A DNA stretch of 64,000 bases from Gemmatimonadales bacterium (GCA_039794085.1 JBDIWC010000020.1:1-64000); one strand, 5' to 3'. Counted from the stretch's first letter, positions 23,320-45,924 are shown. The notes: a model not told the origin generated them from the sequence alone. Numbers and translations are program-made.

Positions 23320-23330
23320 GGGAGGGCCAT

Positions 23331-28466: not shown

Positions 28467-28541
28467 TGGGCGAAGAGGGATTCGAACCCCCGACATCCTG
28501 CGTGTAAGGCAGGCGCTCTGGACCGGCTGAGCTATTCGCCC
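28467..28541 (-). tRNA. tRNA-Val(TAC), CCA not encoded
   Basis: GGGCGAA/TTCGCCC acceptor stem, CCTGC-CTTACAC-GCAGG anticodon arm, GGTTCGAATCC T arm. Confidence 0.96.
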
Positions 28542-28610
28542 GATCCACCTGCCCCTGTTCAACAGGGAGACGACACGCCCCCCACCCATTTGCACGGAGC
28601 GAACCGGCAA

Positions 28611-28799
28611 TCAGATTGCAATGGCCAGCGGAAACAGGACGACGTACCCGAGAACGAGCAACACGGCCGCCGGACTGGCACTGCCCGATGCGAGCAGGAC
28701 ATACCCCCCCGCCAGCGTTCCCACCGCCACAGCCAGCACAACCCGGTTCCGGATCCCGAACGTGGCCTTCCCTGCAGGGGGTGCATTCTTTTCAGGCAT
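28611..28799 (-). CDS. Small two-TM membrane protein (DUF3098-like)
   Basis: 62 aa, two hydrophobic helices, AVLLVLGY motif; promoter directly upstream. Confidence 0.7.
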   Translation of the reverse strand: MPEKNAPPAGKATFGIRNRVVLAVAVGTLAGGYVLLASGSASPAAVLLVLGYVVLFPLAIAI

Positions 28800-28807
28800 A
28801 AGTCAGT

Positions 28808-28836
28808 ATGCTATTCGCATTGTGGTCTGGGGTCAA
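28808..28836 (-). promoter_or_regulatory. Putative sigma70 promoter, near-leaderless transcript
   Basis: TTGACC-N17-TAGCAT, 8 nt before ATG, no SD. Confidence 0.6.
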
Positions 28837-29714: not shown

Positions 29715-29717
29715 GTC

Positions 29718-30626
29718 CTACTCCGCCGGGGGGCCGGGCACCGCACCGCCCGAGGCGATCAGGTCAAGCATCTCCTGGCACCGGGCCGCCCAGGGCGCAT
29801 GCCGGTTGGCGGCGATCCCCGCCTGCCACACCGTTCGCGCCTCGTCGGGTTTGCCCCCGTGCCAGAGGGACCGACCCAGGTCATAGTAGGCTTCGATCAG
29901 ATTGGGCCCCAGGGCCACCGCCTTCCTCAGAAAACCCTCGGCATCACCATGCATTCCCCGTTCAAAGTACACCAGTCCAAGGTAGTAATGAGCATAGAGG
30001 GTGGCCTTCCGGTCCGCCTCCAGCCGGAGCACTCGCGAAAGATGCTCGATGGCCTCTCCGTAGATCCGCTTCTTGAGGCAGATGTACCCGACGTTGACCC
30101 GGGCCAGCGCGTTGTTCGGCTCCCGGCCCAGCACCAGGCTGAAAGTGCCGAGGGCGGCGTCATATTCTGCGTTGAGCATCTGGGCCCACCCGAGGAGAGC
30201 ATGTCCCTGCAGGTCGTTGGGAGCCAGTCGTGTCGCATGTGTCAGAGCCTCGATGGCGCCGACATGGTCGCCGACCGCGATGAGACTCCACCCCTTCTCG
30301 ATGTAGGTGGACGCTCCGATGTGATCTTCCCGGATCGCCGACTCCGGGGGCGTTGCCTGCGGCCCGGGCGGTGTGGCGGCGCGGTCCCCGTCACGCACAC
30401 TCTTGTATTGATCCACCAGCACGCGGATCTGTTCCTTGAGAGAAGTCAACTCGTCCAGGGCCGCATCGGTGCGCCGGAAGAGGGCCACGATCCGCCGACG
30501 CACATCGTCGCGACCCTCCCGCGAACCGGGCGTCTCCAGCCGTTGGCGAATCGACTCGAGCTCGGTCTCGAGTTCGCGGAGGCCCTCGAGGCGGGAGGGC
30601 GTCGGCGCCGGAACGGGATCAGCCAT
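29718..30626 (-). CDS. Coiled-coil plus TPR protein
   Basis: Heptad-rich N-terminus followed by about five TPR units. Confidence 0.8.
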   Translation of the reverse strand: MADPVPAPTPSRLEGLRELETELESIRQRLETPGSREGRDDVRRRIVALFRRTDAALDELTSLKEQIRVLVDQYKSVRDGDRAATPPGPQATPPESAIREDHIGASTYIEKGWSLIAVGDHVGAIEALTHATRLAPNDLQGHALLGWAQMLNAEYDAALGTFSLVLGREPNNALARVNVGYICLKKRIYGEAIEHLSRVLRLEADRKATLYAHYYLGLVYFERGMHGDAEGFLRKAVALGPNLIEAYYDLGRSLWHGGKPDEARTVWQAGIAANRHAPWAARCQEMLDLIASGGAVPGPPAE

Positions 30627-31728
30627 CGGTGCGACTTCCGGGCCCGGGATCCCGCAACACGGCCAGGTGCCGATTCACGGCGGCGCCGATGTCGGGAAGT
30701 GGGAGGACTTCCTGAACTCCTCCTTCGCGTGCGGCCGCCTTGGGCATCCCGAAAATCGCGGATGTCGCCTGGTCCTGAGCGATCCCGATCCCCCCCGCGT
30801 CCCGCAGGGCTCGCAGGCCAGCCGCGCCATCCCGCCCGAGACCCGTCAGCACCACTCCCACGGCGCGGGGACAGGCGTGCTCGGCCACGCTCACGAAGAG
30901 AGGGTCCGCGGCCGGCCGCACGCCCCACACGGAGGGACCCTGGTGGAGGTGCAGAGCCCACCCCCCGGGTGCCTGCTGGTCCACCACCATATGGAAATCC
31001 CCCGGGGCCACATACACGGTGTCTTCCACGATGGGACTTCCCGCCGCCGCTTCGACCACCGTGAGGTGTGAGAGCCCATCGAGCCGCTCCGCGAGGCTGC
31101 GGGTGAACCCGGGGGGCATGTGCTGAACCACCAGATACCCCGCTCCGTATCCGGGGCGGAGCGCCGGGACGAGCTCGGCGAGGGCCCGGGGCCCTCCGGT
31201 GGACGCGGCCACCACCACCAGGAGCCGCGCCCGTCCCGGAATCACCATCCGGTGTGCGGGGAGGGACGGGGCTGGCGCAGGTCTCGCCAGCACCGGGAGC
31301 CGCGCCACATCGGTCACCGCGGCGGCGCGCAACGCGTCTGTCAGGCGGCGCCGGAATTCCTCCACTCCGGCGGGGGACCGGTCCGGGGCCTTGGCCACGA
31401 GTTCCGCCGCCCCCAACTCGAGGGCGCGGATCGCGAGCCCTGTCCCCGGACCGGCCCAGGAGCTCACCACCACGATGGGGCGCGGGGCCTCGGACATGAG
31501 GTACCCGATCGCCTGGAGGCCATCCAGCTCGGGCATCTCCAGGTCCATCGTGACCAGATCAGGGTCCTCGGCATGGACTTTCCGCAGCGCGTCGAGTCCA
31601 TTGCGGGCACTACCCGCCACCGCGAATCCCGGGATGCTCCCCACGACGTCGGCGATCAGCCGGCGGAAGAAGGGGCTGTCGTCCACCACCAGGACGCGCC
31701 GGATTCCCGGGTCAGAGGGTCTCGACAC
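30619..31728 (-). CDS. cheB: Chemotaxis response regulator / methylesterase CheB
   Basis: REC domain (VVDD, TMDLEMP); catalytic ASTGG, QHMP, TGLGRDG; start approximate. Confidence 0.95.
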   Translation of the reverse strand: MSRPSDPGIRRVLVVDDSPFFRRLIADVVGSIPGFAVAGSARNGLDALRKVHAEDPDLVTMDLEMPELDGLQAIGYLMSEAPRPIVVVSSWAGPGTGLAIRALELGAAELVAKAPDRSPAGVEEFRRRLTDALRAAAVTDVARLPVLARPAPAPSLPAHRMVIPGRARLLVVVAASTGGPRALAELVPALRPGYGAGYLVVQHMPPGFTRSLAERLDGLSHLTVVEAAAGSPIVEDTVYVAPGDFHMVVDQQAPGGWALHLHQGPSVWGVRPAADPLFVSVAEHACPRAVGVVLTGLGRDGAAGLRALRDAGGIGIAQDQATSAIFGMPKAAAREGGVQEVLPLPDIGAAVNRHLAVLRDPGPGSRTDG

Positions 31729-32200
31729 CACGCGCCACCGACGTGATCTCCAGTCGTCCGGACTCGACATCCAGAGTCACCGACCGGCCATGCTCCCCTC
31801 CGACCAACTCCCCGGCCACGAGGATCCCGTGTGCCGCCAGTGCCTCCCGCGACGCCACCGTGTTGCGCTCACCCATCTGCAGGGTCCCGCGGGCACTCAG
31901 GGACGCAAACATACTGGCCCCCCCGATCAGCCGGGCGGTGATGCGTTCCTGGCCAGCCCCCAGGTCGGCCATGGCGTCCAGCAGGGCGGGAACGGCCGTC
32001 TCCGGGTAGCGGCCGGGCGCGTCGTGAATCCGGCTCAGGGCGGGGGACGGAAGCAGGATGTGGGCCATCCCCCCGGTTCGGGACGCCGGATCGTGCAGCA
32101 CGATCGCAATGCAGCTTCCCAGGCCGAGAGTGACGAGTTCCCCCGTGCCCCGAAGAGCCCGGAGTTCCCCGACGCCCACCATGTGACGGGGCCCGCTCAT
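31712..32200 (-). CDS. cheD: Chemoreceptor glutamine deamidase CheD
   Basis: LGLGSC, GMAHILLP, GGASMF, GERN. Confidence 0.93.
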   Translation of the reverse strand: MSGPRHMVGVGELRALRGTGELVTLGLGSCIAIVLHDPASRTGGMAHILLPSPALSRIHDAPGRYPETAVPALLDAMADLGAGQERITARLIGGASMFASLSARGTLQMGERNTVASREALAAHGILVAGELVGGEHGRSVTLDVESGRLEITSVARGVETL

Positions 32201-33009
32201 GCGATCCTCCGATACAGGCGGGATCGCGGATCCACCGCGACCATCCGTCGGCTCGCCGGTCCGGTCAGGCCCTCCACCTTGCCCAGAAGGAGCACGCCCC
32301 CCGGCGCCAGGGCGTCGACAAACTTTTGATAGAGTGACTCCTGCACGTCGCGGCCGAAATAGATCACCACGTTGCGGCACACGATCAGGTCATACGGGGG
32401 ATCGGGGGGCGGGTCCACACCCAGATCGTGCCGGAGGAAGCGCGCGCGGTTCCGGAGCCCCGGACGGATGGCCACCTGCTCGGGCCCGGCGGATGCCAGG
32501 TGCCGGCGGGCCCGGTCCGGGACCGGCACCCCGAAGTTCCGCTCGGGGTAGACCGCGGCCCGGGCCCGATCGAGCACGGCGGGGTCGACATCGGTCGCAT
32601 CCACTCGACTCTCGGCCGACCAGGCCGGATCCCGCCCCCCCTCCCCCAGATCGGCCAGCATCATCACGATTGTCCACGCCTCCTCTCCCGTGGCGCATCC
32701 CGCACTCCAGCATCGCAGGGGAGGGCCCGTCACCCGGGCGCGCAGAGTGGCCTCGAGGGAGTCCCACGCCTCCGGGTTGCGAAAGAACTGCGTCACATTG
32801 ATGGTCAGCGTCTGCAACAGCCGCTCGACCTCCTCGGGTGTCCCCCGGAGGATCCCCGCGTAGTCGGCCATGGTCTCCACCCCGCACGCACGCATCCGTA
32901 CGGCGAGCCGGCGGCGGAGACACCGATCCTTGTACATGGAGAGCGCGGGAATTCCCGCCGCGCCCCGAAGCGCCTGGATCACGACTGTCAGATCCTCCTG
33001 CTCCGGCAT
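32197..33009 (-). CDS. cheR: Chemotaxis methyltransferase CheR
   Basis: TINVTQFFR, WSAGCATGEE, ATD, CRNVVIYF. Confidence 0.95.
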   Translation of the reverse strand: MPEQEDLTVVIQALRGAAGIPALSMYKDRCLRRRLAVRMRACGVETMADYAGILRGTPEEVERLLQTLTINVTQFFRNPEAWDSLEATLRARVTGPPLRCWSAGCATGEEAWTIVMMLADLGEGGRDPAWSAESRVDATDVDPAVLDRARAAVYPERNFGVPVPDRARRHLASAGPEQVAIRPGLRNRARFLRHDLGVDPPPDPPYDLIVCRNVVIYFGRDVQESLYQKFVDALAPGGVLLLGKVEGLTGPASRRMVAVDPRSRLYRRIA

Positions 33010-34625
33010 CAGGTCACGCTCCCGGCGAGGGAGTCGAGGTTGGCCCGGGCCAACTGATGGTCGGAATTGATGGTCAGTGCCTGTTCCCAACACCGGCGCG
33101 CCTCCTGCGCATCGTGACGCTTCAGCGCCAGGTTGCCCAACTTGAAATAGAGATCGTCGCCGAGGTCCGGAGCCAGGGTGGCCGCCCGGCGATACCAGCT
33201 TTCGGCCTCCTCGTATCGTCCCGACCGATAACAGATGTCCCCCAGGTTCTTGGTGACCTGAGCCAGGCCGGGTCCCTCCGCGATGGCGTCACGCAACTCG
33301 GCTTCCGCCCCGGCCAGGTCCCCCGAGGCCTCGAGAAACACGGCGTGGGTGGCCTTCAGGACCGGATGGCCGGGATGGGACTCGAGCCCCTCCTGGATGC
33401 GGGTCAGGGCCCCCTCCAGGTCGCCGCGGAGGGCACACACCCGGGCCCGGGCCCACGGCAGGGTCGGCGGGGGAGTCGTCGTGCCGAACAGGGCCAGGGC
33501 CGCGTCGAGGCGCGCCTCCGCCGCATTGGCGTCCCCCCGGGCCAGGGCCACAATGCCCCAGGAGGTCAGGATGCGAGGCTGGTCCCGACCGCGCCCCACG
33601 GCCTCCGCCAGAAGCTGCTCCGCCTCGTCGAGACGCCCCTGGCGTTCGAGGGCCACCCCGAGATTGTGGAGAGTCACGGCCCGGGGGCCCGCGCGGTCGA
33701 GTGACATCCGGAACGCCGCCTCCGCGTCGGCCCATGCGCCCTGGCGCATCGCGATGAGCCCGAGGTGAAACGGCGCCGCACCCTCGCCGGGGCGCAGATC
33801 GGCCACCCGGCGGAACTCCCTCCTTGCTTCTTCCAGCATTCCGGTGCGGTAGAAGGCCACCCCGAGATTGCGATGCTCCTCGATCTGGCTCTCCTGCTTC
33901 CGGGTGTCGGCGGGGGGGCTCGCCGTACCGACCCGCCGGATGAGTCCCGCCGTGAGCAGTCCATAGAGAGCCTTCGCCACGTCGAACTCGGACATCCCCG
34001 CCTCCTCCACCAGAGTCCGCACATCCCGCCGGCCATCCAGAAGCTCGAGGACGCGGCGCTGCGTCACGGTGAAGTCGAGTGTCTGATCGGGCTCATGCTC
34101 CATCCCGAAGATGAGATCAAAGGACGGGATTTTCTTCTCGATCAGAGCCCACTCGTCCACCCGGCGGGCCCCTTCCAGGAGGACCGATTCCGGGTTGATC
34201 CGGCACAGAACTTCGTCGGCCTCGGGCTGGATCCCCGCCTCGAAGCTGAAGGTCCCGGAATCCCAGGTGAACAGGGCGAAGATCGCCTCCTCCACCTGCA
34301 TCCTCACATGTTCTTCCATCTCACCCCGGCCCAGCATGCCCAGGGAGACGAGAATCTCCCCCAGGCGGAGGTTGGGAACATTGGATTGAAACCGCATGGC
34401 CGCGTCGAGCTGAGTGGCCGTGATGCGCCCGGTCCTCACCAACATGTCGCCCAGGCGATCCCGCCGGTTGACGATCGTGGCATGGACAATGAACCCCTCC
34501 TCGAAGAAGATCGATCCGTGACTGTGGCGGTCCGCCAGGGCGAGACACCCCGTCCGGCGTCCCAGAAAGAGGAGTTGCATGACGTCGGGGAGGCTCGCTT
34601 CCCTCAGACTGCCCTTGATCGCCAT
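33009..34625 (-). CDS. DUF4388 (PATAN-like) domain plus tandem MshEN motif plus TPR protein
   Basis: IKGSLREASLPDVMQLL…WDSGTFSF…LLEGARRVDEW pattern; two RLG..LV..G motifs; C-terminal TPRs. Confidence 0.85.
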   Translation of the reverse strand: MAIKGSLREASLPDVMQLLFLGRRTGCLALADRHSHGSIFFEEGFIVHATIVNRRDRLGDMLVRTGRITATQLDAAMRFQSNVPNLRLGEILVSLGMLGRGEMEEHVRMQVEEAIFALFTWDSGTFSFEAGIQPEADEVLCRINPESVLLEGARRVDEWALIEKKIPSFDLIFGMEHEPDQTLDFTVTQRRVLELLDGRRDVRTLVEEAGMSEFDVAKALYGLLTAGLIRRVGTASPPADTRKQESQIEEHRNLGVAFYRTGMLEEARREFRRVADLRPGEGAAPFHLGLIAMRQGAWADAEAAFRMSLDRAGPRAVTLHNLGVALERQGRLDEAEQLLAEAVGRGRDQPRILTSWGIVALARGDANAAEARLDAALALFGTTTPPPTLPWARARVCALRGDLEGALTRIQEGLESHPGHPVLKATHAVFLEASGDLAGAEAELRDAIAEGPGLAQVTKNLGDICYRSGRYEEAESWYRRAATLAPDLGDDLYFKLGNLALKRHDAQEARRCWEQALTINSDHQLARANLDSLAGSVT

Positions 34626-36559
34626 CAGCGGAACTCCTCCAATAGCTGATCGGTGACCTGGGGCCAGACGGGAATGATCTTTTCCTGGAGACGGGCTCCG
34701 GTCAGCAATGGATTCTGCAATCCCGATCCCGACCGGACCCGGGGGGCCACCGGGGACGGCGCCTCCCCGAGGGCCTCCCGCGCCAGGCTCGATGTGGGCG
34801 GAGTGCCCCGGCGCGTGGCCGCCGCCATCACGCGCTGCACGGCGGCCTGAACCGCGCGGGCTGATGCCGCGGGCGGACGGGCGATCACGTCGACGAGGGC
34901 CGCGTCGTCGCGATGTCGCTCGGGGAGAGCGTGCATGACCAGTCGGGCGCGAAGCTCCCGGTCCGGAGGCTCCAGATCCACGATGACGCCCGCCGTGAGG
35001 CGGGACAACAGCCGTGCCTCGACACCCTCCAGCTCCTGCAGCGGCGTGGATGTCGTCACCAGGACCGGGCGACCGGAGGACACGAGGGCCTCCAGGGCGT
35101 CGGTCAGGAGAGCCAGCGTGTGAGGAGCCCCGATCCGGTCCAAGTCGTCCACGAGGATCGCCGAGGCGATGCGGATGCCGGCCCACCATCCCGCCGGGTC
35201 CCCCGCGAAGTCGGGGGAGGACAGGCACGCGACGACACCGCCATGACGCTCCAGCCAGGCGGATCCGAATCCGTGCAGGAGATGAGTCTTGCCACTCCCG
35301 CTGGCTCCGTGTACCACGACGGGATTGTCGCCGGTGTCCCCTCCGAGGAGCCGGTCGAGGGCCCGGAGCACCGACCGCGTCGAGGCGCTCTCCACAAAAG
35401 TTTCCAGCCGCCAGGCGGGGTCGGGCCCCGGGAGACCGGCCACACGGAGCCGGATCTGGTCCAGGGCGCGGCGCGCCCCGGGAAGATCATCGGGATCCTG
35501 AAACACGGCTCCTTCCCCGCCCCGGGGATCCAGAGCCCGTGCCTCGCGCGCCAGGGCCACCATCGCCTCGGCATCCCGCTCGAACTCCGCCAGCAGGGTG
35601 TCAGGGTCGTCAGGAAACTCCTCGCGCAACAACCCTTCCAGCCGCGCCGTGCGGATGCCCTCCCCCTCCCATCGGAGAATCGCCGCTCCCACTCTCTCCC
35701 GCCACCGGTCCACCTGCTCCGCGACGGTGGCCACGACCTCGGAGAGGAAGTCGCCAAACTCGTCGGCGTGGTCCCGGTCCTCTTCCACCCCATCCGGGAA
35801 GGCACGAACCCTTTCTGCCGAACCGCTGACGACATGGGTTCCGGGCAGGTCACCTGGCGGGCCCTCGGGAACCGGCCCCGCCGCTCCCAGTTCCCCCAGC
35901 AGCACGGAGGCCTGGGAGACATCCAAGGGGTGCCGGCTGACCGCCTGAAAGGCCACCAGGCGCCGGAAGGCTCCGAGCAACTCGCGGATGTTCCGCACCG
36001 GCAGGAGGGCGAGCGCCTCCAGGACGGCGGGATCCAGAGCCGGGTCCGCGGGAAGAGAGCGCAGGAGGCCCAGCCGGCGGTCGGGTCCGGGGAGATCGAG
36101 CTCCACCACGAGCCCGCTCGCCGACACCCGGCACAGCCGGGAATCGGCGTGAGGGATCTCCCCCGGGGACAGGGCGGAGGTCAGCACGGTGGCGCGGCGT
36201 GCTTCGGCTCTCGCCTCCAGCACCTCCGCCGCCACCCCCTGTCCGGCGCGGGGCAGCTGGTCCACATCGTCCACCAGCAGCAGGTCGGCCCCCGTCCACT
36301 CCTCGCGTTGCTCCGGCCGAAAGGCCGCGCCGCTCACCCGCACGGCCCGCCGGGCGGGATCCACGCGCGCCGCGAGTCCCTCGATCGCGGACAGAAGGTG
36401 GCTCTTGCCGAAACCGGGAGAGCCCACCAAGAAAAGGGGGTTGTAGGGCGGATGACGTGACTCGGCCACGGCCCGCGCCGCGGTGACGGCCAGCGCCCCC
36501 TGGGGTCCCGCGACATAGGTGTCGAATCGTTCCGCCGACTGCGCCCCGATCCTCGTCAT
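34625..36559 (-). CDS. Protein with two tandem DnaA/Hda-like AAA+ modules and no DnaA DNA-binding domain
   Basis: FDTYVAG…[29 protein letters not shown]; second module [29 protein letters not shown]. Confidence 0.85.
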
Positions 36560-37173
36560 GGCTCCTCCACCCCGTCGGTCCCGGTGCGGGGGGCGAGCCG
36601 TTTCAGCACCAGGCCGGACAGTGCCTTCAAGGTCTCGAACACCCCGACGCCGGTCAGGGCATCGGCCCCGAAGCTCGGTACATCGCGAAAGTTGAGCGCG
36701 TCATCCAGCTCTGCGCTTGTCAGGATGAGATCTCTCGGCAGGTCCTGCTTGTTGAACTGGAGAATCAACGGCACGGTCCGGATGTCCACGCCCTGCTCCC
36801 GCAGGTTGTCCTGCAGGTTCTGCAGACTCTCCACGTTGTCGTCGAACCGGCGGGCCTGACTGTCGGCCACGAAGACCACCCCATCCGCACCCTGAAGAAC
36901 GAGTCGGCGGGTGGCATTGTAGTAGACCTGTCCCGGGACGGTGTACAGCTGGAACCGGGTGGTGAAACCGGAGATCGATCCCAGGTCGAGGGGAAGAAAG
37001 TCGAAGAACAACGTGCGATCCGTCTGGGTGGCCAGCGACACCATCTGGCCCCGCCGCGACGGCGGGACCCGGTCGTGGATGTACTGCAGGTTCGTGGTCT
37101 TGCCCGATCGTCCGGGACCGTAGTAGACCAGTTTGCAGGTGATCTCCCGCGCACCGAAGTTGACCAGGGACAT
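36556..37173 (-). CDS. mglA: MglA family small GTPase
   Basis: [36 protein letters not shown]. Confidence 0.95.
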
Positions 37174-37177
37174 GGGC

Positions 37178-37639
37178 CTAGTCTCCGAAGAGGGCGCGAA
37201 GGCTGGCGTCGAGATCGGCCTCGAAGTTCTCGGCGAGGACCGGTCGCGTTTCCCGGACCGGGGCGGCGCCGGCCAGAGCCGAGACCAACTGGCCGAAGAA
37301 GAGCTGGACCAGACCGATCGAGGTGTCCCGGCCGAACACCACGAGTCCGATCCACTGGGCATCCGGCATGGGGAGAGGCGAGAGGTACACCCCGAGCTCG
37401 GTTCCTTGATGCACCAGGGCACCGAAGTGCTCCCCGCCGATCACCTGTCCCAGTTCGGAGGTGGAGGCCATGATGCCGGCCCCGAGGGCCGCCGCCGACA
37501 TCACATCGAGCGCCCGGGTGAACCCATGCTGGGCCACCACCTGCCCCGCCGACGTCATCAGCAGGACCACCCGGGCCCCCGACTCGGCTACGAACCGGTC
37601 CAGGGGCCCGGCCACCCACGGTTCAATGCTGCGTTTCAC
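37178..37639 (-). CDS. mglB: Roadblock/LC7 protein, MglB-like GAP
   Basis: Roadblock pattern ([30 protein letters not shown]); adjacent to mglA. Confidence 0.8.
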
Positions 37640-37986
37640 CCCGCCCCCTTCCCGCCCAGATCCAGCAGCCGGAGCCGCAGCACACCGCGGTGAGTTCGTT
37701 CCGTGGTCACGGCGACCGCCAGGACCACTTCGTCCACCGGTACCACCAGCACGGCACCATGCTCCGCCTCGAGCTGCAGGAAGCGGGGGGGACGTTGTCC
37801 ACCCGCCACGGCGGCTCGGCGCATCCGGCCCCACAGGCTGGCGGACAACGCCGCGGCCGCCGCCGCATCGAATCCCTCACGCACCATCTCAGCAATCACC
37901 AGACCATCCTCCACGGCCACCAGGAGGGCGCCCTGAACCCCGGGGACATCGGCGATGGCGGCCAACGCGGACTCCTCGATCGACAT
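37636..37986 (-). CDS. Roadblock/LC7 domain protein
   Basis: VPGVQGALLVAVEDGLVI, AAALSA, G.LR pattern. Confidence 0.85.
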   Translation of the reverse strand: MSIEESALAAIADVPGVQGALLVAVEDGLVIAEMVREGFDAAAAAALSASLWGRMRRAAVAGGQRPPRFLQLEAEHGAVLVVPVDEVVLAVAVTTERTHRGVLRLRLLDLGGKGAG

Positions 37987-38768
37987 CAGCCGAGGCGCTC
38001 CAGCCATTGTTGCGCGTGCCGGGCCGCGCGCCGGGCCACGAGGGGAAGCCGCCCCGGGGGGGCGCCGGCCTCACCCACGGCGAGCAACAGGGTGTCCGGC
38101 GTGGGGGGAAGAAGGTGCATGGCGGCGTCCGGTCCCTCCGTCGACAGGCACTCCCACGAACCGAGATCAAGCAGGCGGGCCACGCGGGACGCCTCCTGCG
38201 ACACGCCGGCGAGCAGCGCCGCAAGGCCGTCCGAGACCTCGGACCCATCGGGAGTATGGAGACTTCCCGCGAGACGCCGACCATCGAGATCCACCAGGAT
38301 TGTGCCGGGCATGGTGTCGTCGAGGGGTGGCTCCAGAGGCGCGCCACCGGTCGGCGTGGATCGGCCCGCCACCTGGGCCCGAGTCCGTTCCACGGCCTGG
38401 GCGAGACTCGGGTCCTCGGGTTCCAGGTGGGCCGCCATCTCCAGATGGCGCAATGCGCGAGAGAGGTCCTCGTTCCGGAAGGCGAGATAGGCGAGGCCCT
38501 TGTGGGCCCCGGCGTGGTCGGGTTGGAGCCGCAGCGCGGTGGTCCAGGCGTCGAAGGCCGCATCCCCGTCGCCCTGATCGCTCCGGATCCGCCCGAGCAG
38601 ATCATGGGCATCCGCCAGGTGAGGATACCGGGCCAGACCGCTGGTCGCCACCGCCAGGGCGGCATCCAACTGGCCAACCCGGCGGAGGTGTTCTCCCAGT
38701 GGAAGAAACGCCAGGCTCGTCGGGTCGGCGGCAAGCCGCGCCGTCAACGTTTGCACATTATCTGCCAT
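37986..38768 (-). CDS. TPR plus Roadblock/LC7 fusion protein
   Basis: N-terminal TPRs; C-terminal GTILVDLDG…LAALLAG…LLLAV Roadblock-like fold. Confidence 0.75.
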   Translation of the reverse strand: MADNVQTLTARLAADPTSLAFLPLGEHLRRVGQLDAALAVATSGLARYPHLADAHDLLGRIRSDQGDGDAAFDAWTTALRLQPDHAGAHKGLAYLAFRNEDLSRALRHLEMAAHLEPEDPSLAQAVERTRAQVAGRSTPTGGAPLEPPLDDTMPGTILVDLDGRRLAGSLHTPDGSEVSDGLAALLAGVSQEASRVARLLDLGSWECLSTEGPDAAMHLLPPTPDTLLLAVGEAGAPPGRLPLVARRAARHAQQWLERLG

Positions 38769-39912
38769 GCCGGTCCCGCAGGCCGGTCCCCAGGGATCGG
38801 GCCGCCTCAAGGTGGTGAAGGATGGCGGGTTGGTGCTGCCGTTCGGCAGACTCCGCAATGCCAAGAGTGCTCCACTGTTCCCACGCCGCCACGGCCTCGT
38901 CGAACCGTGCCGTGCCCACACAGGCGAAACCGAGCAACCGCCAGGCCTGGGGAACCTCGGGCGATCGGCGCGTGGCTTCCCGAAGTGCCTCCCGCGCTTC
39001 CGCATAGCCCTGCTGCACGAGCCAGGCCCGCCCGAGCAGAAGATACCCCTCCACCATGTCCGGGAAGCTGCTGATGACCGTCCCCGCCATGAAACGGGCG
39101 GATTCCGCATCGCCAAGCCGGAGGTGCTCCTCCCCCTGCTGCAGCATGGCCGCGGGATCCTGCCGGGACGCGGCCGAGGACTCCGCCGTGGGATCGCTCA
39201 ACAGAATAACACCGGCCGAGGCCAGACCGAAGAGGGCGCGCGCCACGTCAAAATCCGATTCCCCCAGCATCCCGGCGATGGTCCGGATGTCGTGTCGCCC
39301 GTCCACACGGGCCAGGAGGCGCCACTCCCCGGGGAGAAGGGTCAGGGAACCCGGATCCAATTGCCGGGGGGGAGGCGCGAGACGGGGCACCACTCCCAGA
39401 TGTGGGACCTTGCCCTGGATCCGGGACCACTCATCGATCCGCCGGGCGGCCTCCAGCAGGAGCGACTCGGTCGAGATCCGGATTCCTGCTTCCTGCGGGA
39501 TGTCCTCCGGCGGCACGTCCTCGAACACGAAGTGTCCCTCCGACCAACCGAGGACGGTGAAGACCACCTCCTCGATCTGAGCGCGGGCCTGGCGCTCGAC
39601 ATCGCGCGGGCTGATCGCCCCGATCGACACCAGGATCTCTCCCAGCCGACGGGAGTCCCCGGCCTCCTGCATGGCACGGGCCCGCGTGAGGTCCTCCTGA
39701 TGAATCTTCCCCGCTCGAAGCAACGCCGTTCCGAGCGGATGGGGATTGGACCGGATGGCGGCCGCGACCACGGCGGCGTTGTGGACCCAGATCGTGCCTT
39801 CGTTCTGCCGCAGCTCGGACGTGATGCGGAGCACCCCGGTCTTCCTCCCCAGATCGAGCAACTGGAAGACGTCGTGAATGCCGAGTTCGCGCAGGGGACC
39901 CTGGATGGCCAT
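38758..39912 (-). CDS. DUF4388 domain plus MshEN-like motif plus TPR protein (paralog of 33009-34625)
   Basis: IQGPLRELGIHDVFQLL, WSEGHFVF, LLEAARRIDEW; RLGEILVSIG; TPRs. Confidence 0.85.
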   Translation of the reverse strand: MAIQGPLRELGIHDVFQLLDLGRKTGVLRITSELRQNEGTIWVHNAAVVAAAIRSNPHPLGTALLRAGKIHQEDLTRARAMQEAGDSRRLGEILVSIGAISPRDVERQARAQIEEVVFTVLGWSEGHFVFEDVPPEDIPQEAGIRISTESLLLEAARRIDEWSRIQGKVPHLGVVPRLAPPPRQLDPGSLTLLPGEWRLLARVDGRHDIRTIAGMLGESDFDVARALFGLASAGVILLSDPTAESSAASRQDPAAMLQQGEEHLRLGDAESARFMAGTVISSFPDMVEGYLLLGRAWLVQQGYAEAREALREATRRSPEVPQAWRLLGFACVGTARFDEAVAAWEQWSTLGIAESAERQHQPAILHHLEAARSLGTGLRDRHGR

Positions 39913-39914
39913 GG

Positions 39915-42623
39915 TCAGCCGGCCTCCAGGCCGAAAATCTGGATCAGTTCGCGCGCCGAGCGGACGCTGGCCCGGGCTTCCGCGGCCAACGGGCCCGTGG
40001 GCGCAAGGGCCAGCACGCGGTCCCAGGCCTCCACCGCCGCCCCGAAGTGCCGGAGTCGAGATTCGGCCACGCCCAGGTGGAAAGAGGCCACAACCTGCTC
40101 CGGATCCAGGGCCAGGGCGCGCTGCAGGGCCCGCCGGGCCATGTCCGGCCGCCGGTCCGCGAGCAGGGATCGCCCCAGCGCCACCAAGGCCTCCACCGAC
40201 AGCGGCTCGGCCACCAGAAAGTCCACCAGCAGGTTGACCGCTTCCCCGGGCCGCCCCCCGCGCCGGAGGAGGTGGGCGAGGGAGAGCACCGTGTCCTGAT
40301 GCGTCGGCAGCAAACGGAGAGCACGGTCCCACGCCATCCGGGCCTCACCGGGGTTGCCAGCGGACTCGCAGGACGCCCCCAGCTCGTACCAGGCCTGCAC
40401 CAGACCGCCGTCCAGGTCGAGCGCGGCCCGGAACGCCTCCATCGCCCCGCCGTGATCCTGCTGGCGCCGCGCGATCGTCCCCTTCAGGACGAGCAGGTCG
40501 GCCCGCCCCGGAGCGGCCGTGATCGCCGCCTCGACGTCGTCGGCTGCTCCCGCCAGATCCTCGGTCACCAACCGAACCCGGGCCCGGATGACGCGGGCAT
40601 CCACGTTGCCCGGCAGCGCCTCCACCACCGCGTGCGCCGCCCGCAGTGCCTCCTCGGCCCGCCCCAGAGCCAGGAGAGCTCCCGCCTCTCCCAAGCGCAA
40701 CCGGACGCTGTCCGGGTCGGCGTCCCGGGCGATGCGATACCGCTCCAGAGCCTCGCCATAGAGTCCGCGCCGCGCAAAGACCTCCGCCAGGACACCGGCG
40801 GCCGCCGCCGCGCTCGCCCCGCGCTGGACGGCGCGGTTGATCTCCGCAGTCGCCGCATCCAGCAACCCCTTGGCGAGATAGTCTGCGGCCAACTGGAAGG
40901 GGTCCCCCGCTAAGGGGTCGCCCTCTTCGGGATCCGGAGTCGGCGAGGGGGGCTCCACCAAGCGGTCGAACACGCCGTCCAGAACCCCGGCGTCGAAGGA
41001 GAATCCGGCCACCTGCTCGGCTCCCTCCCGTCCGGACAGGTGGGGCGCCACCTCGAAGGCCGACTCCTCGTGCTGCAGCTGAAGAGTCAGAGAGAGTTTC
41101 TGCGGAACGTACAGAGGGTCGAGCTCCAGGGCCCGGCGCGTCTCCCGTAGCGCCGCATCGAACTCCCCCAGGTGACTGAGCGCAAATCCGAGGTTGTAAC
41201 GCGCCACCGCCAGATCGGGAGCGAGTTCCACCGCCCGACCGAAGGCGTTGCGGGCGTCGGTGAAGCGCTTCAGGTCCATCAACACCAGGCCGATTCCATT
41301 CCACGCTCCGGGATGGTCCGCATGCTCGGCAAGCACCATGCGGTAGATCTCGGCCGCGGCCTGGTAGCGCCGGTGGTGCAGGTGAAGCATCGCCAGATTC
41401 AGCCGGGCCGGGGTCAGATCGGGCCGCGCGCGCAGCGCCGCTCCGAAGGCGCGCTCCGCCTCGCGGGAATCGCTCTCGGCGCCGAGGGCTACGCCCACAT
41501 TGTTCCAGGCCAGCGCATTGGAGGGATCGATGTCGACCGCGCGACGGAACACAGACCGGGCTTCCTCGACACGACCCGCCAGATGGAGGCAGACACCATG
41601 CGCATTGCAGACGGCGCTGTTGCCGGGCTGGACCGCCCGCAGAGACTCGAACAGGTCGAGCGCCGATTTGTAGTCGCGGCGGAGCAGGTGAACCTCGGCC
41701 ATTCCCTGGAGGGTGGCACTGTGGTCCTCCCCCGTTTCGAGCGCGAGCCGGTACTCCCGCAGCGCCTCCGCAAGATACCCCCGCTGCCGGAATGCGAGAG
41801 CGAGCCGTCCGTGCGCCTCGGCGCCCGGAGCGCTCGCGGGAACAGCCGGCGAGGCGGAGCCTCCCCGCTCGGAAGCGCGTGGCGGCTGGGCCTGTGAGGA
41901 TTCCAGCCGCAGGTTGCTGTGTGCCGTGGCGAGCCCCGGGTTGAGCTCGATGGCCTTCCGCGTCGAGGCGCGAGCCGCCTCCTGACGGCCCAGATCCCCG
42001 TAGACGAACCCCAGGAGGTAGTGAGCCTCCGCGTTGGTGGGCGCGAGCCGAGTGGCTTCGGTCAGCGCCTCCAGGGCCAGCTCGCTCAGGCCGAGCTGAT
42101 ACCGTGCCTCACCCAGGTACACCCGCGCCACCGAGCTCGCCGCATCCGCGTCGCAAGAGCGCTCGAACCACACGACGGCCTCCTCGGGCCGTTGACGGGC
42201 CTGGGCCACAAGCCCGAGTTGCACCAGGGCCGTCGCGTCCCGGGGCCGGAGACGTCGCAGTTCCTCGAACTGCTCCGCGGCCTCGTCCAGGTGTCCCAGG
42301 CCCAGCAGGGCCCGCCCCAGTTCCAGCCGAAGCTCCGCGTCCATGGGCTGGTGGCGCAGCCGCTCCCGAAGCGCCGGAATCACCCGATCGTATTCACCTG
42401 ACTCCCTCAGCACCTGGTCCAGGTTGCGCCGCGCCGTCTCCATCCGGGGATCGAGTTCGAGCGCATGACGGAACGCCGCGATCGCCTCGGGAATCAGCTG
42501 GCGGTGATGATAGAGGTATCCGAGGTTATTGTGGGCGCCGGGATCAGCGGGGTCGATGCGCCGCGCCAGCGCCCGGAGCGCCTCGACCTCCCGCGCACCG
42601 GTCCCGGATCCGATCATGATCAA
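39915..42623 (-). CDS. Large multi-TPR scaffold protein
   Basis: Many TPR units (AHNNLG, AWNNVG, ARYNLG); no signal peptide; start uncertain by a few codons. Confidence 0.88.
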   Translation of the reverse strand: MIMIGSGTGAREVEALRALARRIDPADPGAHNNLGYLYHHRQLIPEAIAAFRHALELDPRMETARRNLDQVLRESGEYDRVIPALRERLRHQPMDAELRLELGRALLGLGHLDEAAEQFEELRRLRPRDATALVQLGLVAQARQRPEEAVVWFERSCDADAASSVARVYLGEARYQLGLSELALEALTEATRLAPTNAEAHYLLGFVYGDLGRQEAARASTRKAIELNPGLATAHSNLRLESSQAQPPRASERGGSASPAVPASAPGAEAHGRLALAFRQRGYLAEALREYRLALETGEDHSATLQGMAEVHLLRRDYKSALDLFESLRAVQPGNSAVCNAHGVCLHLAGRVEEARSVFRRAVDIDPSNALAWNNVGVALGAESDSREAERAFGAALRARPDLTPARLNLAMLHLHHRRYQAAAEIYRMVLAEHADHPGAWNGIGLVLMDLKRFTDARNAFGRAVELAPDLAVARYNLGFALSHLGEFDAALRETRRALELDPLYVPQKLSLTLQLQHEESAFEVAPHLSGREGAEQVAGFSFDAGVLDGVFDRLVEPPSPTPDPEEGDPLAGDPFQLAADYLAKGLLDAATAEINRAVQRGASAAAAAGVLAEVFARRGLYGEALERYRIARDADPDSVRLRLGEAGALLALGRAEEALRAAHAVVEALPGNVDARVIRARVRLVTEDLAGAADDVEAAITAAPGRADLLVLKGTIARRQQDHGGAMEAFRAALDLDGGLVQAWYELGASCESAGNPGEARMAWDRALRLLPTHQDTVLSLAHLLRRGGRPGEAVNLLVDFLVAEPLSVEALVALGRSLLADRRPDMARRALQRALALDPEQVVASFHLGVAESRLRHFGAAVEAWDRVLALAPTGPLAAEARASVRSARELIQIFGLEAG

Positions 42624-43240
42624 TCGCGGGCGATCGACTCGAGGATCGCGCGCAGGGAGGGAAAGTCGGGCAGCAGGAGAAACTCGCCCCGGAGGCTCTC
42701 CTGGCTCCCCTCCACCCGAAAGGCGGTGTCCACGCAGAAGACGATGTCCCTCTCCTGTCCGAAGCTCACATAGGTCGTGGTCAGGACCGCCCCCGCGAAG
42801 TCGAGCACGAAACTCGGAACCGAGGGCACCAACATCATGCTCATGAAATCGCTGAGCGCGTTGAGATAGGCCGAACTCAGGATGTTCCCCGTCTCCTTGA
42901 GGGAGGAGATTTCCATCTCCCCGAAGGTGGTGGTCGACCCGGTGTCCCGCCGGAGGAGGATGTCGCAGAGCACCCGCGCCGACGGCTCCGGGATGACCAC
43001 CATGGTCCGGCCCGTCAGGTCGCCCATCATGTGCATGAGGATCCCCGCAACGACCGTGTCCGGGGGCCCGACCAGGTGCGCCACCTCCTCGAGGCGCCGG
43101 ATGTTCACCTCCGGCACATCGATCATGATGGTGCGCCCCGTCATCTGCGACAGCGCGGTGGCGGCGTGACCCGCTCCGATGTTGGCCACCTCCCGGAGGG
43201 CGTCCCGCTCGATTTCACCAAGCTTCTGCAAGGCGTCCAT
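42620..43240 (-). CDS. cheC: CheY-P phosphatase CheC
   Basis: DALREVANIGAGHAATALS and SSLKETGNIL (two E-xx-N motifs). Confidence 0.95.
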   Translation of the reverse strand: MDALQKLGEIERDALREVANIGAGHAATALSQMTGRTIMIDVPEVNIRRLEEVAHLVGPPDTVVAGILMHMMGDLTGRTMVVIPEPSARVLCDILLRRDTGSTTTFGEMEISSLKETGNILSSAYLNALSDFMSMMLVPSVPSFVLDFAGAVLTTTYVSFGQERDIVFCVDTAFRVEGSQESLRGEFLLLPDFPSLRAILESIARD

Positions 43241-43251
43241 GCAACCTCCCC

Positions 43252-45120
43252 TCAGACCAGGACCATGGGATCGAGCACCAGGATGGGTACGCCGTCCCCC
43301 AGAATGGCGGCGCCGTTGATCCATCGCGGCATGCCGCGCGGGGCGTCAACCGGTTCGACCACGATATGTTGCCGACCTACTAATGTATCCACCACGACGC
43401 CGATTCGCCGATGTCCCTGGTCCACCACCACGACCGGAGTTCTCCGTCCAGCCCGGCCCGGCCCCGGGGCTCCGGTCACCCCCCGCAGGACCACGGCCGG
43501 AAGGGTTGCCCCGCGGTAGGAAATGGTCCCCCCGGATGCCCGGGCAGGAATCTCCTCCACGTGCCCCGTCTCGACAATATGGGCGAGGGGCACGGCATAC
43601 CGCTCCGGGCCCACCTGCACGATGAGCGCCTGCACGATGGCCAGCGTCAGCGGGAGACGGAGCTCGAACGTCGTCCCGGCCCCGGGCCTCGTATGGAGGG
43701 ACACCCGGCCACCGAGTTGCCGGAAACGGGTCAGGACCACGTCGATCCCGACTCCGCGACCGGACACCCCGGTCACCTCCCGACTCGTGCTGAATCCGGG
43801 CCGCCCGAGCAGCGCCAGAAGATCCTCATCCGAATCGAGGGTGGAGGTGGGCCCCAGGAATCTCTCCCGGCGGGCCTTGTCCACCACGGCCTCCCGGTCG
43901 ATGCCCCGTCCGTCGTCCCGAACCAGAATGAGCACCGAATTGTGTTCCCGGGTCGCGCGCAGCAGGATCCTTCCCTCGGGCGTCTTCCCCGAGCGCACCC
44001 GCTCCTCGGGAGTCTCGAGCCCATGATCCACCGCGTTCCGAAGCAGGTGGAGAAGCGGATCGCCGATGTCATCGAGGAGGGACCGGTCAAGCTCGATGTC
44101 TCCCCCCTCGATCACGAAGGCCACCCGCTTCTCCAACTGACGCGCGAGATCCCGGATCGGTCGGGGGAACCGGTCGAACACCTCCGCCACCGGGGCCAGC
44201 CGGGCCTCGGTCACACTGGTCTGGGCCTGGGACACCAGGCGACTGATGCGACCCGACAGGGTCTCCAGGGGGGATCCCGGAGCGGTCACCGCAATTTCGG
44301 CGAGTTGGTTGGTGGCCACGACCAATTCACTGACCTGGTTGAGGAGGTCGTCCAGACGCTGGAGAGTCACTCGAACCTGGCGGCCCGCCATTCGCGTGGC
44401 CGGTGTGGGACGATCCCCCACGATGACCGAGAGCACGTCACCCGCCTCCCGGATCGCCTCGCGAATCCGCTCGTCCGAGGCGGCGGTGGCCAGCCGGAAG
44501 GAGAGGTCGCCTCCGAAGGCCGGGCTCTGGATCGCCTCTCGGGGCGGGAACACCGCCGACACCTTCCCGAGAAGCTCCGCCTTGAGGAGCACCAGGGCCG
44601 CCCGGGCACCGAGCATCTCCCCATCATGCCGAAGGGTGACGCGGATCGGGCGCCCCGCGGGGGCTCCGAGCCCGACCGGAATGGCGAACTCCCCGGTGCG
44701 GTGGACGTCCACCTCCCCGCCTTCTCCCTCGCCGGCCGTCTCCGGACTCGCGGCCCGCCGAAGCCCGGCAAGCACCTCGTCCACCGGCAACTCCGCGTCC
44801 CGGCCCTCGGCGGCGGGATCGATGCCCGCCTCCAGGAGATCCACTGCCTGGAAGCAGAGATCGATGATCCCCGGATCGGCGGATCTCTCGTGGTCGCGGA
44901 TGGTGGCGAGGAGGCTCTCCAGGGCGTGGCTCAGGTCGGCAAGCCGGGTGTAGCCCATGGTGGCGGCCATCCCCTTGATGGTGTGGATGGACCGGAACAG
45001 ACCATCGAGGGGAGCGGAGGCCGTGGGGGCCCGCTCCCACTCCAGGAGCAGCGCGTTGCACTGGGCCAAGTGCTCGCGGCTGTCCGCCCGAAAGAGAGCG
45101 ACGTACTTGTCGAGATCCAC
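43252..45120 (-). CDS. cheA: Chemotaxis histidine kinase CheA (Hpt-P2-dimerisation-HATPase-CheW)
   Basis: HTIKGM, HLLRNAVDHG, DDGRG, GFST, GRGVG, LPLTL. Confidence 0.97.
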   Translation of the reverse strand: MDLDKYVALFRADSREHLAQCNALLLEWERAPTASAPLDGLFRSIHTIKGMAATMGYTRLADLSHALESLLATIRDHERSADPGIIDLCFQAVDLLEAGIDPAAEGRDAELPVDEVLAGLRRAASPETAGEGEGGEVDVHRTGEFAIPVGLGAPAGRPIRVTLRHDGEMLGARAALVLLKAELLGKVSAVFPPREAIQSPAFGGDLSFRLATAASDERIREAIREAGDVLSVIVGDRPTPATRMAGRQVRVTLQRLDDLLNQVSELVVATNQLAEIAVTAPGSPLETLSGRISRLVSQAQTSVTEARLAPVAEVFDRFPRPIRDLARQLEKRVAFVIEGGDIELDRSLLDDIGDPLLHLLRNAVDHGLETPEERVRSGKTPEGRILLRATREHNSVLILVRDDGRGIDREAVVDKARRERFLGPTSTLDSDEDLLALLGRPGFSTSREVTGVSGRGVGIDVVLTRFRQLGGRVSLHTRPGAGTTFELRLPLTLAIVQALIVQVGPERYAVPLAHIVETGHVEEIPARASGGTISYRGATLPAVVLRGVTGAPGPGRAGRRTPVVVVDQGHRRIGVVVDTLVGRQHIVVEPVDAPRGMPRWINGAAILGDGVPILVLDPMVLV

Positions 45121-45130
45121 CCGGCGCCGG

Positions 45131-45493
45131 TCAGCTGAGGAGGCGCTGAACGGCCTCGAGCACGCGCGAGGGCTGGAACGGCTTGACCACGAAGTCCTTG
45201 GCCCCCGCCTGGATCGCCTCCACCACCAGGGCCTGTTGCCCCATCGCGCTGCACATGAGAATCTTGGCGTCGGGATCGATCTTGACGATTTCCCGCACCG
45301 CGTCGATGCCCCCCATGTCGGGCATGACGATGTCCATGGTTACCATGTTGGGGCGGAGTTCCCGGTAGCGTTCCACAGCCTGGGCCCCGCTCTCGGCCTC
45401 CCCGACCACTTCGTACCCGGCCTGGGTGAGAATGTCGGTGATCATGGTGCGCATGAAGATCGCGTCGTCACATACCAAAACGGTCTGACCCAC
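45131..45493 (-). CDS. cheY: Chemotaxis response regulator CheY (Bacillus/Thermotoga type)
   Basis: DDAIFMR, TMDIVMP, CSAMGQ, KPF; GGAGG RBS before GTG. Confidence 0.95.
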   Translation of the reverse strand: MGQTVLVCDDAIFMRTMITDILTQAGYEVVGEAESGAQAVERYRELRPNMVTMDIVMPDMGGIDAVREIVKIDPDAKILMCSAMGQQALVVEAIQAGAKDFVVKPFQPSRVLEAVQRLLS

Positions 45494-45543
45494 GTGCTGC
45501 CTCCGTGCGAGGGGATCGTGAGGTGCCCCGGGGGCACCCGATG

Positions 45544-45924
45544 TCACAAGGCCCGGCCGACACCGTCCGGGGCGAAAAGCGGACCCACCTGGGCCGCGAG
45601 ATCCGGTACCTCCACGCCCGCCACGTCCGCCTGATCCGCATCCCGAAGATCAAGCACTTCGCTCACCGCCACCCCGACCGCACGCCCTTCCAGCTCGAGG
45701 ACCAGAATCGCCGCCGGATCTTCGGCCCGAGCCTCGCCGAAGAGCGTCCGGCCGTCAATCACCGTGATGATCGTCCCCCGGACGTTGACCAGCCCGAGAA
45801 TCTCCGCAGGGGTCCCCGGAATGCGCGTGGCGACACGGGCCTCCAATATCTCCCGCACGCCGGACACCGGGGTACCGAACCGGCGGGATCCCACCCGCCA
45901 TTCCAGGAGGCGCGACCCGGTCAC
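45544..45924 (-). CDS. cheW: Chemotaxis coupling protein CheW
   Basis: VREI, TRIPG, GLVNVRGTIITVID. Confidence 0.88.
   Translation of the reverse strand: MTGSRLLEWRVGSRRFGTPVSGVREILEARVATRIPGTPAEILGLVNVRGTIITVIDGRTLFGEARAEDPAAILVLELEGRAVGVAVSEVLDLRDADQADVAGVEVPDLAAQVGPLFAPDGVGRAL

Follow-up and report, generated by a model that had tools for sequence, protein, structure and literature searches.

A Gemmatimonadales operon that sets a receptor-less chemotaxis gene set around an MglA/MglB module, PATAN-TPR proteins and a tandem DnaA-type ATPase

In Myxococcus, the Frz–MglA/MglB(/RomR) system joins a chemotaxis-type pathway (CheA, CheW, a CheY-type output, CheR and CheB) to a Group-1 MglA and a Roadblock GTPase-activating protein (GAP), with mglA encoded away from its signalling partners (PMC4316618). 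Chemosensory genes also accompany PATAN domains carrying a two-hairpin insert in the cyanobacterial Tax and Pix systems (PatA-type PATAN-receiver proteins), and in cyanobacteria PATAN has PilB1 and PilC of the pilus motor as binding partners (10.1101/2021.06.11.447907). Genes for MglA and MglB are often neighbours of PATAN genes (PMC4316618). Here we describe a locus in which parts of all these kinds stand together. It lies on a stretch of 64,000 nucleotides from a Gemmatimonadales bacterium (GCA_039794085.1 JBDIWC010000020.1:1-64000; below, the window), in which gene calling and Pfam identified 16 co-oriented genes on the minus strand, running from 45924 down to 29718 (g01 to g16, Table 1). 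The arrangement is real and strongly conserved. We read it as one operon in which a complete but receptor-less chemotaxis set surrounds the second MglA/MglB module of the genome, forming a non-flagellar pathway that switches or positions a polar machine, probably type IV pili, a reading that we believe about as far as we doubt it.

The locus beside the closest described systems

The operon resembles the Frz system in encoding a chemotaxis-type pathway, a Group-1 MglA and a Roadblock GAP, but here all of them are in one operon. It differs further in that the Pfam domains of the 17 cluster proteins include no CheA–receiver fusion and no double receiver (no sequence search was made for RomR, FrzZ or FrzX), in that CheC, CheD, two PATAN-TPR proteins, two extra Roadblock proteins and a tandem DnaA-type ATPase are added while a receptor gene is lacking, and in that its mglA is a second copy beside a stand-alone mglBA pair. 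With Tax and Pix the operon shares the chemosensory genes and a PATAN domain with the two-hairpin insert, but its PATAN domains are fused to TPR repeats, its receiver is a separate CheY, and MglA, Roadblock proteins and the ATPase form no part of the cyanobacterial systems as described in the source cited above. The insert of g12 resembles the MshEN/GSPII domains of MshE and PilF, having two 24-residue motifs and superposing on 5htl and 8pdk; unlike those domains it sits inside PATAN and not at the N-terminus of a secretion ATPase, and its ligand binding is predicted. In sequence and fold alike, each module of g11 is a DnaA domain III that retains Walker A and B, as in DnaA and Hda, but one polypeptide holds two of them with a conserved helical linker between, neither domain I nor domain IV is present, and the gene lies in a signalling operon.

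Part of the arrangement can be recognised in an earlier survey. The supplement of Wuichet and Sogaard-Andersen (2014, after Makarova 2006; PMC4316618) gives for Gemmatimonas aurantiaca the rows GAU_1409 'PATAN>MglA>-PATAN>' and GAU_1115 'MglB>MglA>'. The GAU_1409 row fits the core described here and that of three single-contig genomes of a related genus; that table recognises three gene types only, and Che genes, TPR genes and the nature of the '-' gene (here the ATPase) go unmentioned in the rows cited. A literature search, thin on subscription journals, found no paper describing the operon and, as the preliminary description of this DNA had supposed, no characterised operon of this composition. 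Chemosensory control of MglA of the Frz type is known; its single-operon version with the added parts is new.

Conservation, layout and natural variants

We compared gene order in 20 genomes from three families of the order Gemmatimonadales (the relatives) and in 80 metagenome loci, the latter taken from 561 confirmed stretches found in a metagenome scan with the g12 PATAN alignment. The cluster was colinear in 19 of the 20 relatives, the exception being a contig that ends inside it, and in 80 of 80 metagenome loci. The ATPase gene g11 stood directly upstream of g12 in 54/54 metagenome loci, and the gene after g12, seen in 52 of them, was CheR in 49, CheD in two and g16 in one. This conservation of gene order excludes a chance juxtaposition, and the preliminary description, which had made its proposal depend on the order being kept in relatives, holds up on that point. 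Identity across the relatives was highest for CheY (80-96%) and MglA (69-89%) and lowest, within the cluster, for the g11 ATPase (29-46%); how many relatives carry each gene is listed in Table 1.

The distribution of the cluster was followed in a sample of 301 genomes of the phylum with g11, the gene that most sets it apart, at E<=1e-30 as the marker, a threshold that excludes true dnaA, which scored about 1e-17 to 1e-23 with the g11 query. The marker was present in 174 of the 197 genomes of the order, namely in 120/124 of the window's family (f1), 51/70 of a second (f2; 50/69 without G174, an unpublished genome included in that count) and 3/3 of a third (f3), and in one of 103 genomes from nine other families (G120, 5.9e-33). 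When public records were scanned with g11 most matches were true dnaA; 17 of the 80 loci kept had a match of 1.9-2.0 kb over both modules, and 16 of these were titled Gemmatimonadales or Gemmatimonadota and one was a metagenome-assembled genome labelled Acidimicrobiia. The metagenome scan with the g12 PATAN alignment returned close relatives only (53-63% identity). Among Atlas protein clusters, those of 590-660 aa (g11-like) were all commonest in Gemmatimonadota, and other phyla had single-module, DnaA-only clusters of 220-320 aa. The genomic position of the cluster was fixed as well: the genes for a zinc finger protein, lspA and rluD preceded it in 19 of the 19 relatives whose stretch reaches so far, and also in the three single-contig genomes and in the reduced genome G071 described below, which suggests vertical inheritance within the order.

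Genes were picked in the window, whose G+C content is 64-72%, by third-position G+C and domain content, and the Pfam domain matches of CheA, CheW and CheY lay above gathering scores. Gene starts were chosen by us among candidate start codons, and all junction figures depend on them. Nine of the 15 internal junctions were overlaps (1, 1, 1, 4, 4, 4, 8, 11 and 20 nt) and six were gaps (2, 2, 4, 10, 11 and 50 nt); the 50-nt gap between CheW and CheY becomes a 4-nt overlap with the upstream GTG start of CheY, which gives a protein of 138 aa instead of the 120 aa from the GTG behind GGAGG. Both borders between Che and non-Che genes were tight, with a gap of 2 nt between CheC and the TPR gene (g04/g05) and an overlap of 1 nt between PATAN and CheR (g12/g13). 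The co-directional string extends past the 16 genes at both ends: the rluD stop and the CheW start share 4 nt, and 3 nt after g16, the last TPR gene, comes the Peptidase_MA-like gene g17, a possible seventeenth gene of the operon. The 16 genes, their domains, order and coordinates all agreed with those first reported for this DNA. A promoter and terminator scan of positions 28000-47900 was uninformative (one promoter-like site with 1.0 expected, four terminator-like sites with 6.2 expected), and the nine sequencing runs that contained window positions 33000-42900 were all of DNA and none of RNA, from hot-spring, biofilm and soil metagenomes. The DNA runs that held this part nearly whole (0.88-0.94 of sampled words) bore a hot-spring metagenome label.

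Natural variants showed which genes travel together. In one genome (G015) rluD is followed directly by g05, all seven Che genes being gone while g05-g12 and g16-g17 are kept. A 99%-complete genome (G071, locus L156, C4:69500-89400) has no MCP match (methyl-accepting chemotaxis protein) and no H-kinase_dim match; it keeps CheY, a CheA-like remnant without a match for the dimerisation domain and part of CheC, gave no match for CheW, CheR, CheD or CheB, and has an intact middle block. Its Che block is decaying. Another genome (G019) had no match for CheR or CheB. Three single-contig genomes of another genus (4.64-5.18 Mb) had no match for the three Roadblock genes or CheR and kept CheW-Y-A-C, TPR, the short PATAN gene, MglA, the ATPase, PATAN-TPR, CheD, CheB and TPR. 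Taken together, these variants define a core of g05-g12 and g16, with the two Che blocks as an input layer around it. The last TPR gene, g16, which was present in every relative including the variants with lost or trimmed Che genes, belongs to this core and not to the Che set. Several relatives have two extra CheW-like genes between cheB and g16 (for example L028, 17479-18374) that are absent in the window.

Table 1. Genes of the cluster in the window, in the order of transcription, with domain matches and the number of relatives (of 20) that carry each gene
Gene	Product	Length (aa)	Coordinates	Strand	Relatives	Evidence
g01	CheW	126	45544..45924	-	19	Pfam CheW 1.6e-21; GTG start
g02	CheY, single receiver domain		45131..45493	-	18	Pfam Response_reg 2.2e-30
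g03	CheA, P1-P2-P3-P4-P5	622	43252..45120	-	18	Hpt 3.3e-18, P2 1.5e-09, H-kinase_dim 4.6e-07, HATPase_c 3.5e-16, CheW 1.4e-22
g04	CheC (phosphatase of phosphorylated CheY)	206	42620..43240	-	18	Pfam CheC 1.1e-18, two stretches
g05	Cytoplasmic TPR protein	900	39915..42617	-	19	many TPR families, TPR_2 1.2e-74
g06	PATAN (DUF4388), helical insert, winged-helix-like part, TPR	384	38758..39912	-	19	PF14332 1.6e-29
g07	TPR with C-terminal Roadblock/LC7	260	37986..38768	-	19	Robl_LC7 1.9e-05
g08	Stand-alone Roadblock/LC7	116	37636..37986	-	18	Robl_LC7 7e-09
g09	MglB-type Roadblock	153	37178..37639	-	19	Robl_LC7 1.9e-05
g10	MglA-type small GTPase	205	36556..37173	-	20	phmmer vs M. xanthus MglA
g11	Tandem DnaA-domain-III AAA+	644	34625..36559	-	20	Bac_DnaA, two stretches, 1.8e-30
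g12	PATAN, MshE-type insert, winged-helix-like part, TPR	538	33009..34625	-	20	PF14332 2.6e-33
g13	CheR methyltransferase	270	32197..33009	-	17	Pfam CheR 1.5e-38
g14	CheD deamidase	162	31712..32200	-	19	Pfam CheD 6.7e-24
g15	CheB, receiver and methylesterase	370	30619..31731	-	17	CheB_methylest 1.6e-59, Response_reg 3.1e-18
g16	TPR protein	302	29718..30626	-	20	TPR_2 6.3e-21; first ~100 residues precede the TPR repeats
g17	Peptidase_MA-like HExxH protein	293	28833..29714	-	12, downstream of g16 (several remaining stretches end before g17)	PF13485 6.5e-10

The assembly to which the window belongs comprises 4.16 Mb in 115 contigs and is 94.7% complete. The cluster is preceded by ileS, a gene for a DksA/TraR-type zinc-finger protein, lspA and rluD, which overlap one another (45921-51124) and lead directly into cheW; divIVA lies further upstream at 51843-52370. 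Each of the three single-contig genomes from the other genus gave two adjacent lspA matches, which suggests a tandem duplication. Downstream of g17 come a gene for a TPR lipoprotein and then a division/cell-wall cluster; this dcw-type cluster (16858-25588, same strand) holds an ftsI-like penicillin-binding protein gene with a PASTA domain, murE, murF, mraY and ftsW. The g17 protein, whose gene is found in many metagenome loci too, has a hydrophobic N-terminus and a hydrophobic stretch near its C-terminus, as judged by eye from the translation. The genome further has nine matches to secretion ATPases of the T2SSE type, PilM and nine GGDEF matches.

Components of the operon

The core of a Che pathway is entirely present, with CheA (Hpt, dimerisation, ATPase and CheW-like domains), CheW and a CheY receiver, and so are, by Pfam, the adaptation enzymes CheR and CheB and the accessory proteins CheC and CheD. 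CheB passed NF001965 (336.9 bits against a cut-off of 293). The best NCBIfam models for CheA, CheY, CheC and CheD were CheA_Halo, CheY_Halo (2e-37), CheC_Thtogales (8.5e-46) and CheD_Thtga (4.7e-36), all of them below their cut-offs. The preliminary description had called the set F1-like; haloarchaeal and Thermotogales models did score best, but at these scores the proteins appear compatible with the F1 class, which is not a class assignment.

No MCP gene was found in the operon or anywhere in the window, and the eight MCP-signal matches of the genome are all on other contigs. The genome has two CheA genes, g03 and a second one that belongs to an MCP-MCP-CheA-CheW-CheB locus, with fliG at a distance of about 15 kb. 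Of the 124 f1 genomes, 24 gave a FliG match and 120 have the g11 marker, which is therefore present in at least 96 genomes with no FliG match. In four FliG-less relatives (97-100% complete) the single H-kinase_dim match lay inside the cluster and 2-6 MCPs were present; a fifth relative had no MCP match and a trimmed Che set only. With the sole CheA in the cluster and MCPs elsewhere in FliG-less relatives, the Che part looks like a working, receptor-fed, non-flagellar pathway. A purely flagellar role is excluded, and the output would be pili, gliding or division. PilM was present in 286 of the 301 genomes of the phylum sample, so nearly all carriers have type IV pili that could serve as the target.

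The enclosed GTPase g10 matched M. xanthus MglA (5ymx) at 4.9e-75 over residues 1-196 in a phmmer search. Group-1 MglA proteins are marked by a TVPGQ G3 motif and an arginine next to the G2 threonine (PMC4316618). Both features are found in g10, and the GPGRSGKT P-loop, the Arg beside the G2 Thr and TVPGQ (G3) were invariant in 24/24 aligned MglA sequences. The Roadblock protein g09, encoded directly upstream of g10, matched M. xanthus MglB (6hjm, 6h5b and 6izw) at 3.4e-10 to 3.9e-10 and T. thermophilus MglB at 1.3e-05, and would be the putative GAP for MglA; g08 gave generic Roadblock matches only in the PDB. The GTPase and g09 are thus a true MglA and a true MglB, as first proposed. The second mglA of the genome (C32:12216-13400, locus L015) follows an mglB-like gene behind dnaX-ybaB-recR. 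Its product has a 32-residue insertion that none of the 23 operon-type MglA sequences in the alignment shares. A complex prediction of MglA with the N-terminal half of the g12 PATAN protein, GTP and Mg scored 0.00 in two runs, which is no evidence either way.

The two PATAN proteins, g06 and g12, matched PF14332 over profile positions 1-122 of 122 and are encoded by the sole two PATAN genes of the genome. PATAN holds a two-hairpin insert resembling the N-terminus of secretion ATPases (10.1101/2021.06.11.447907), and the PF14332 model itself covers this insert. What the preliminary description had taken for a separate MshEN domain is the known alpha-helical insertion inside PATAN. In g12 it spans residues 57-110, followed by a winged-helix-like part at about 161-236. 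With NF053729, the NCBI 53-position model 'c-di-GMP motif, MshE-related' (cyclic di-GMP; cut-off 38 bits), g12 scored 43.0 bits and passed, and g06 scored 33.5 bits and failed. MshEN consists of two tandem 24-residue motifs, RLGxx(L/V/I)(L/V/I)xxG(L/V/I)(L/V/I)xxxxLxxxLxxQ, with a short spacer (PMC5013675). In both motifs of the g12 group Gly3, Leu6 and Gln24 were kept in 19/19 sequences, position 1 was Arg in 19/19 for motif 1 and Arg or Lys in 19/19 for motif 2, and position 10 was Gly in 14/19 and 16/19, respectively; the spacer of g12 has 6 residues instead of 5. In the g06 group motif 1 was degenerate, with Pro at position 1 in 12/19 and Arg at position 21 in 16/19, and Leu-to-Arg at position 21 is among the changes listed for the non-binding XpsE (PMC5013675).

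A model of g12 residues 1-250 was predicted with a pLDDT of 89.6, and its best structural match among 48,161 chains was 5htl_B, MshE with c-di-GMP (Z 10.8), residues 55-114 superposing on 7-66 with a root-mean-square deviation (rmsd) of 2.1 over 59 residues at 36% identity. The next MshE-type fold was 8pdk_A, PilF GSPII-B with c-di-GMP (Z 9.2). In this predicted model the g12 insert has the four-helix MshEN_N fold. Two results argue against c-di-GMP binding: the strict published MshEN pattern matched only one of the 38 sequences of the g12 and g06 groups, in which position 11 is often non-hydrophobic, and Pfam T2SSE_N (PF05157) gave no match at E<=10 for either insert or N-terminal half. On motifs and model together we regard g12 as a predicted c-di-GMP receptor, while binding by g06 is doubtful. 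Of the 'DUF4388-MshEN' composition first assigned to both proteins, the full MshE-type site thus stands for g12 and falls for g06. The winged-helix-like part of g12 (161-236, window ~33918-34145) found its best structural matches in parts of GATOR1 and SEA complex subunits (Z 9.7 each), followed by many bacterial winged helix-turn-helix regulators at Z 5-6.

The ATPase g11 has two modules, at residues ~10-225 and ~380-600, with a helical linker at ~267-374. A profile of 17 orthologs matched domain III of B. subtilis DnaA with module 1 (2.5e-74) and Aquifex DnaA with module 2 (4.6e-51), and the match to the 446-residue B. subtilis chain stopped at residue 349, before the DNA-binding domain. The Walker A Lys (K52, K424) and the Walker B Asp-Asp (D97/D98, D471/D472) were invariant in 17/17 orthologs, as were R141, R520 and R576, and R192 was nearly so; in both modules we read such arginines as box VII and sensor II, taking R141 and R520 to be box VII and R576 to be sensor II of module 2. 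No Pfam family for DnaA domain I or IV matched g11 at E<=0.01, and it passed neither TIGR00362 (DnaA; 195.4 bits, cut-off 343.9) nor TIGR03420 (Hda; 101.2 bits, cut-off 194.8). No clamp-binding motif was seen in g11 on inspection by eye, which is not a formal test. The predicted model (pLDDT 80.7, pTM 0.45) has two alpha/beta modules, the conserved helical linker and a 45-residue disordered tail, and its best Foldseek matches were DnaA domain III (8bv3_A, TMt 0.82, rmsd 2.1; the next 0.78), with Hda at 0.65. The genome's own dnaA-like match is elsewhere, on contig C28. By its sequence and predicted fold, g11 is a DnaA derivative and not DnaA itself.

In the window and in a congener (L047) most of a stretch of about 12 columns between Walker A and Walker B (alignment columns 89-100) is missing from module 1, the other 15 orthologs having it, and the window copy also reads GKS for GKT and TSA for TSD. 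Module 1 may be decaying in the window's genus.

Proposed pathway, alternative outputs and meaning

In the pathway that we propose, the signal would come from orphan MCPs encoded elsewhere and reach CheA by way of CheW. CheA would phosphorylate CheY and CheB; adaptation of the receptors would fall to CheR, CheB and CheD, and removal of phosphorylated CheY (CheY-P) to CheC. CheY-P would act on the enclosed module, that is on MglA, its GAP MglB, the two Roadblock proteins and the TPR and PATAN-TPR adaptors, and the outcome would be a shifted position of MglA-GTP in the cell. Binding of c-di-GMP to the MshE-type insert of g12 would gate the enclosed module, and the double ATPase might be an ATP-dependent assembly switch or timer of the complex, which is the weakest step. 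The adaptors would relay the state to the pilus motor, with the PATAN regulators of Synechocystis and Myxococcus MglA acting via the TPR protein SgmX as models. CheY-P, MglA and c-di-GMP would converge in this scheme on a TPR scaffold; the large TPR protein g05, retained in the variant that has no Che genes, is a candidate scaffold or effector.

The role given to g11 is a guess, and g11 is also the part that could prove truly new. It is conceivable, though we think it unlikely, that g11 is a novel type of nucleotide switch for polarity: a duplicated initiator ATPase without a DNA-binding part that uses ATP either to form the core on which an MglA complex assembles or to time that complex, which would join CheY-P, GTP, c-di-GMP and ATP. 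In its boldest form this idea would have g11 still touching DnaA and coupling polarity signalling to the initiation of replication.

Several points weigh against a polar pathway with type IV pili as its output. No pil gene adjoins the cluster within the window. With rluD on one side, the division/cell-wall genes on the other and divIVA close by, the cluster has a position that fits a role in division equally well. PilM, tried as a discriminator of outputs, was rejected, being near universal and present also in families that have no cluster. MglB is not indispensable to the unit, since the single-contig genomes mentioned above do without the Roadblock genes. That the enclosed module is what receives CheY-P is something we infer, and module 1 of g11 resembles true DnaA more than it does any signalling ATPase, so that a connection with replication is conceivable. 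The same wiring might accordingly serve another polar output, whether division or budding, polar growth, or replication timing through the DnaA-like ATPase, and to this we give a minor share of our belief. The constant position of the cluster, flanked by ileS-lspA-rluD and by the dcw genes and with divIVA upstream, speaks for it, as do outputs beyond motility of the MglA family elsewhere, such as the Streptomyces conservons (PMC4316618), and the N-terminal module of g11, with its close match to DnaA domain III and its presumed box VII Arg, makes co-assembly with DnaA conceivable. A neighbourhood of housekeeping genes is, however, weak evidence for such an output; Pfam, equivalog models and profile comparison found no clamp-binding or DNA-binding part in g11, and the characterised PATAN proteins (the Synechocystis regulators and M. 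xanthus SgnC), like Myxococcus MglA, act on type IV pili or motility.

The remaining explanations fare worse. The Dif pathway of Myxococcus has a CheC homologue and controls exopolysaccharide, and a Dif-like pathway controlling exopolysaccharide or biofilm instead of polarity, with c-di-GMP as a co-input, would account for the CheC-type phosphatase, for the lack of a receptor gene in the operon and for an adaptor with a predicted c-di-GMP site. We consider it improbable: wherever an MglA/MglB pair with additional Roadblock proteins has been studied it serves as a polarity device, and neither glycosyltransferase nor export genes occur in the conserved unit. An ordinary flagellar chemotaxis operon with inserted genes could be argued from the flagellar genes (FliG) of the window genome and from the Thermotogales and haloarchaeal models, flagellar or archaellar, against which the Che proteins score highest, but the many f1 genomes that keep the marker without a FliG match, the four FliG-less relatives whose only CheA is that of the cluster, and the second Che locus of the window genome, near its flagellar genes, make this very improbable indeed. 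That two or three unrelated operons came to lie side by side by chance is scarcely credible at all. The middle block does exist without Che genes (L042; the trimmed variant), but the interleaved order recurs across three families and throughout the metagenome loci, and the spacing at both Che/non-Che borders is near zero.

Myxococcus is the one case in which chemosensory control of MglA has been worked out in detail; there the components lie apart, and decades of genetics were needed to connect them. The operon described here names candidate partners: adaptors between CheY-P and MglA, a predicted entry point for c-di-GMP, and an unexpected DnaA-derived ATPase. It was met repeatedly in a metagenome scan and belongs to a poorly studied phylum. 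Its natural variants, which have lost all or part of the Che set, CheR and CheB, or the Roadblock genes, delimit the modules, and since trimmed versions occur in single-contig genomes with a core gene order that fits the cultured genus Gemmatimonas, the system would be open to tests at the bench.

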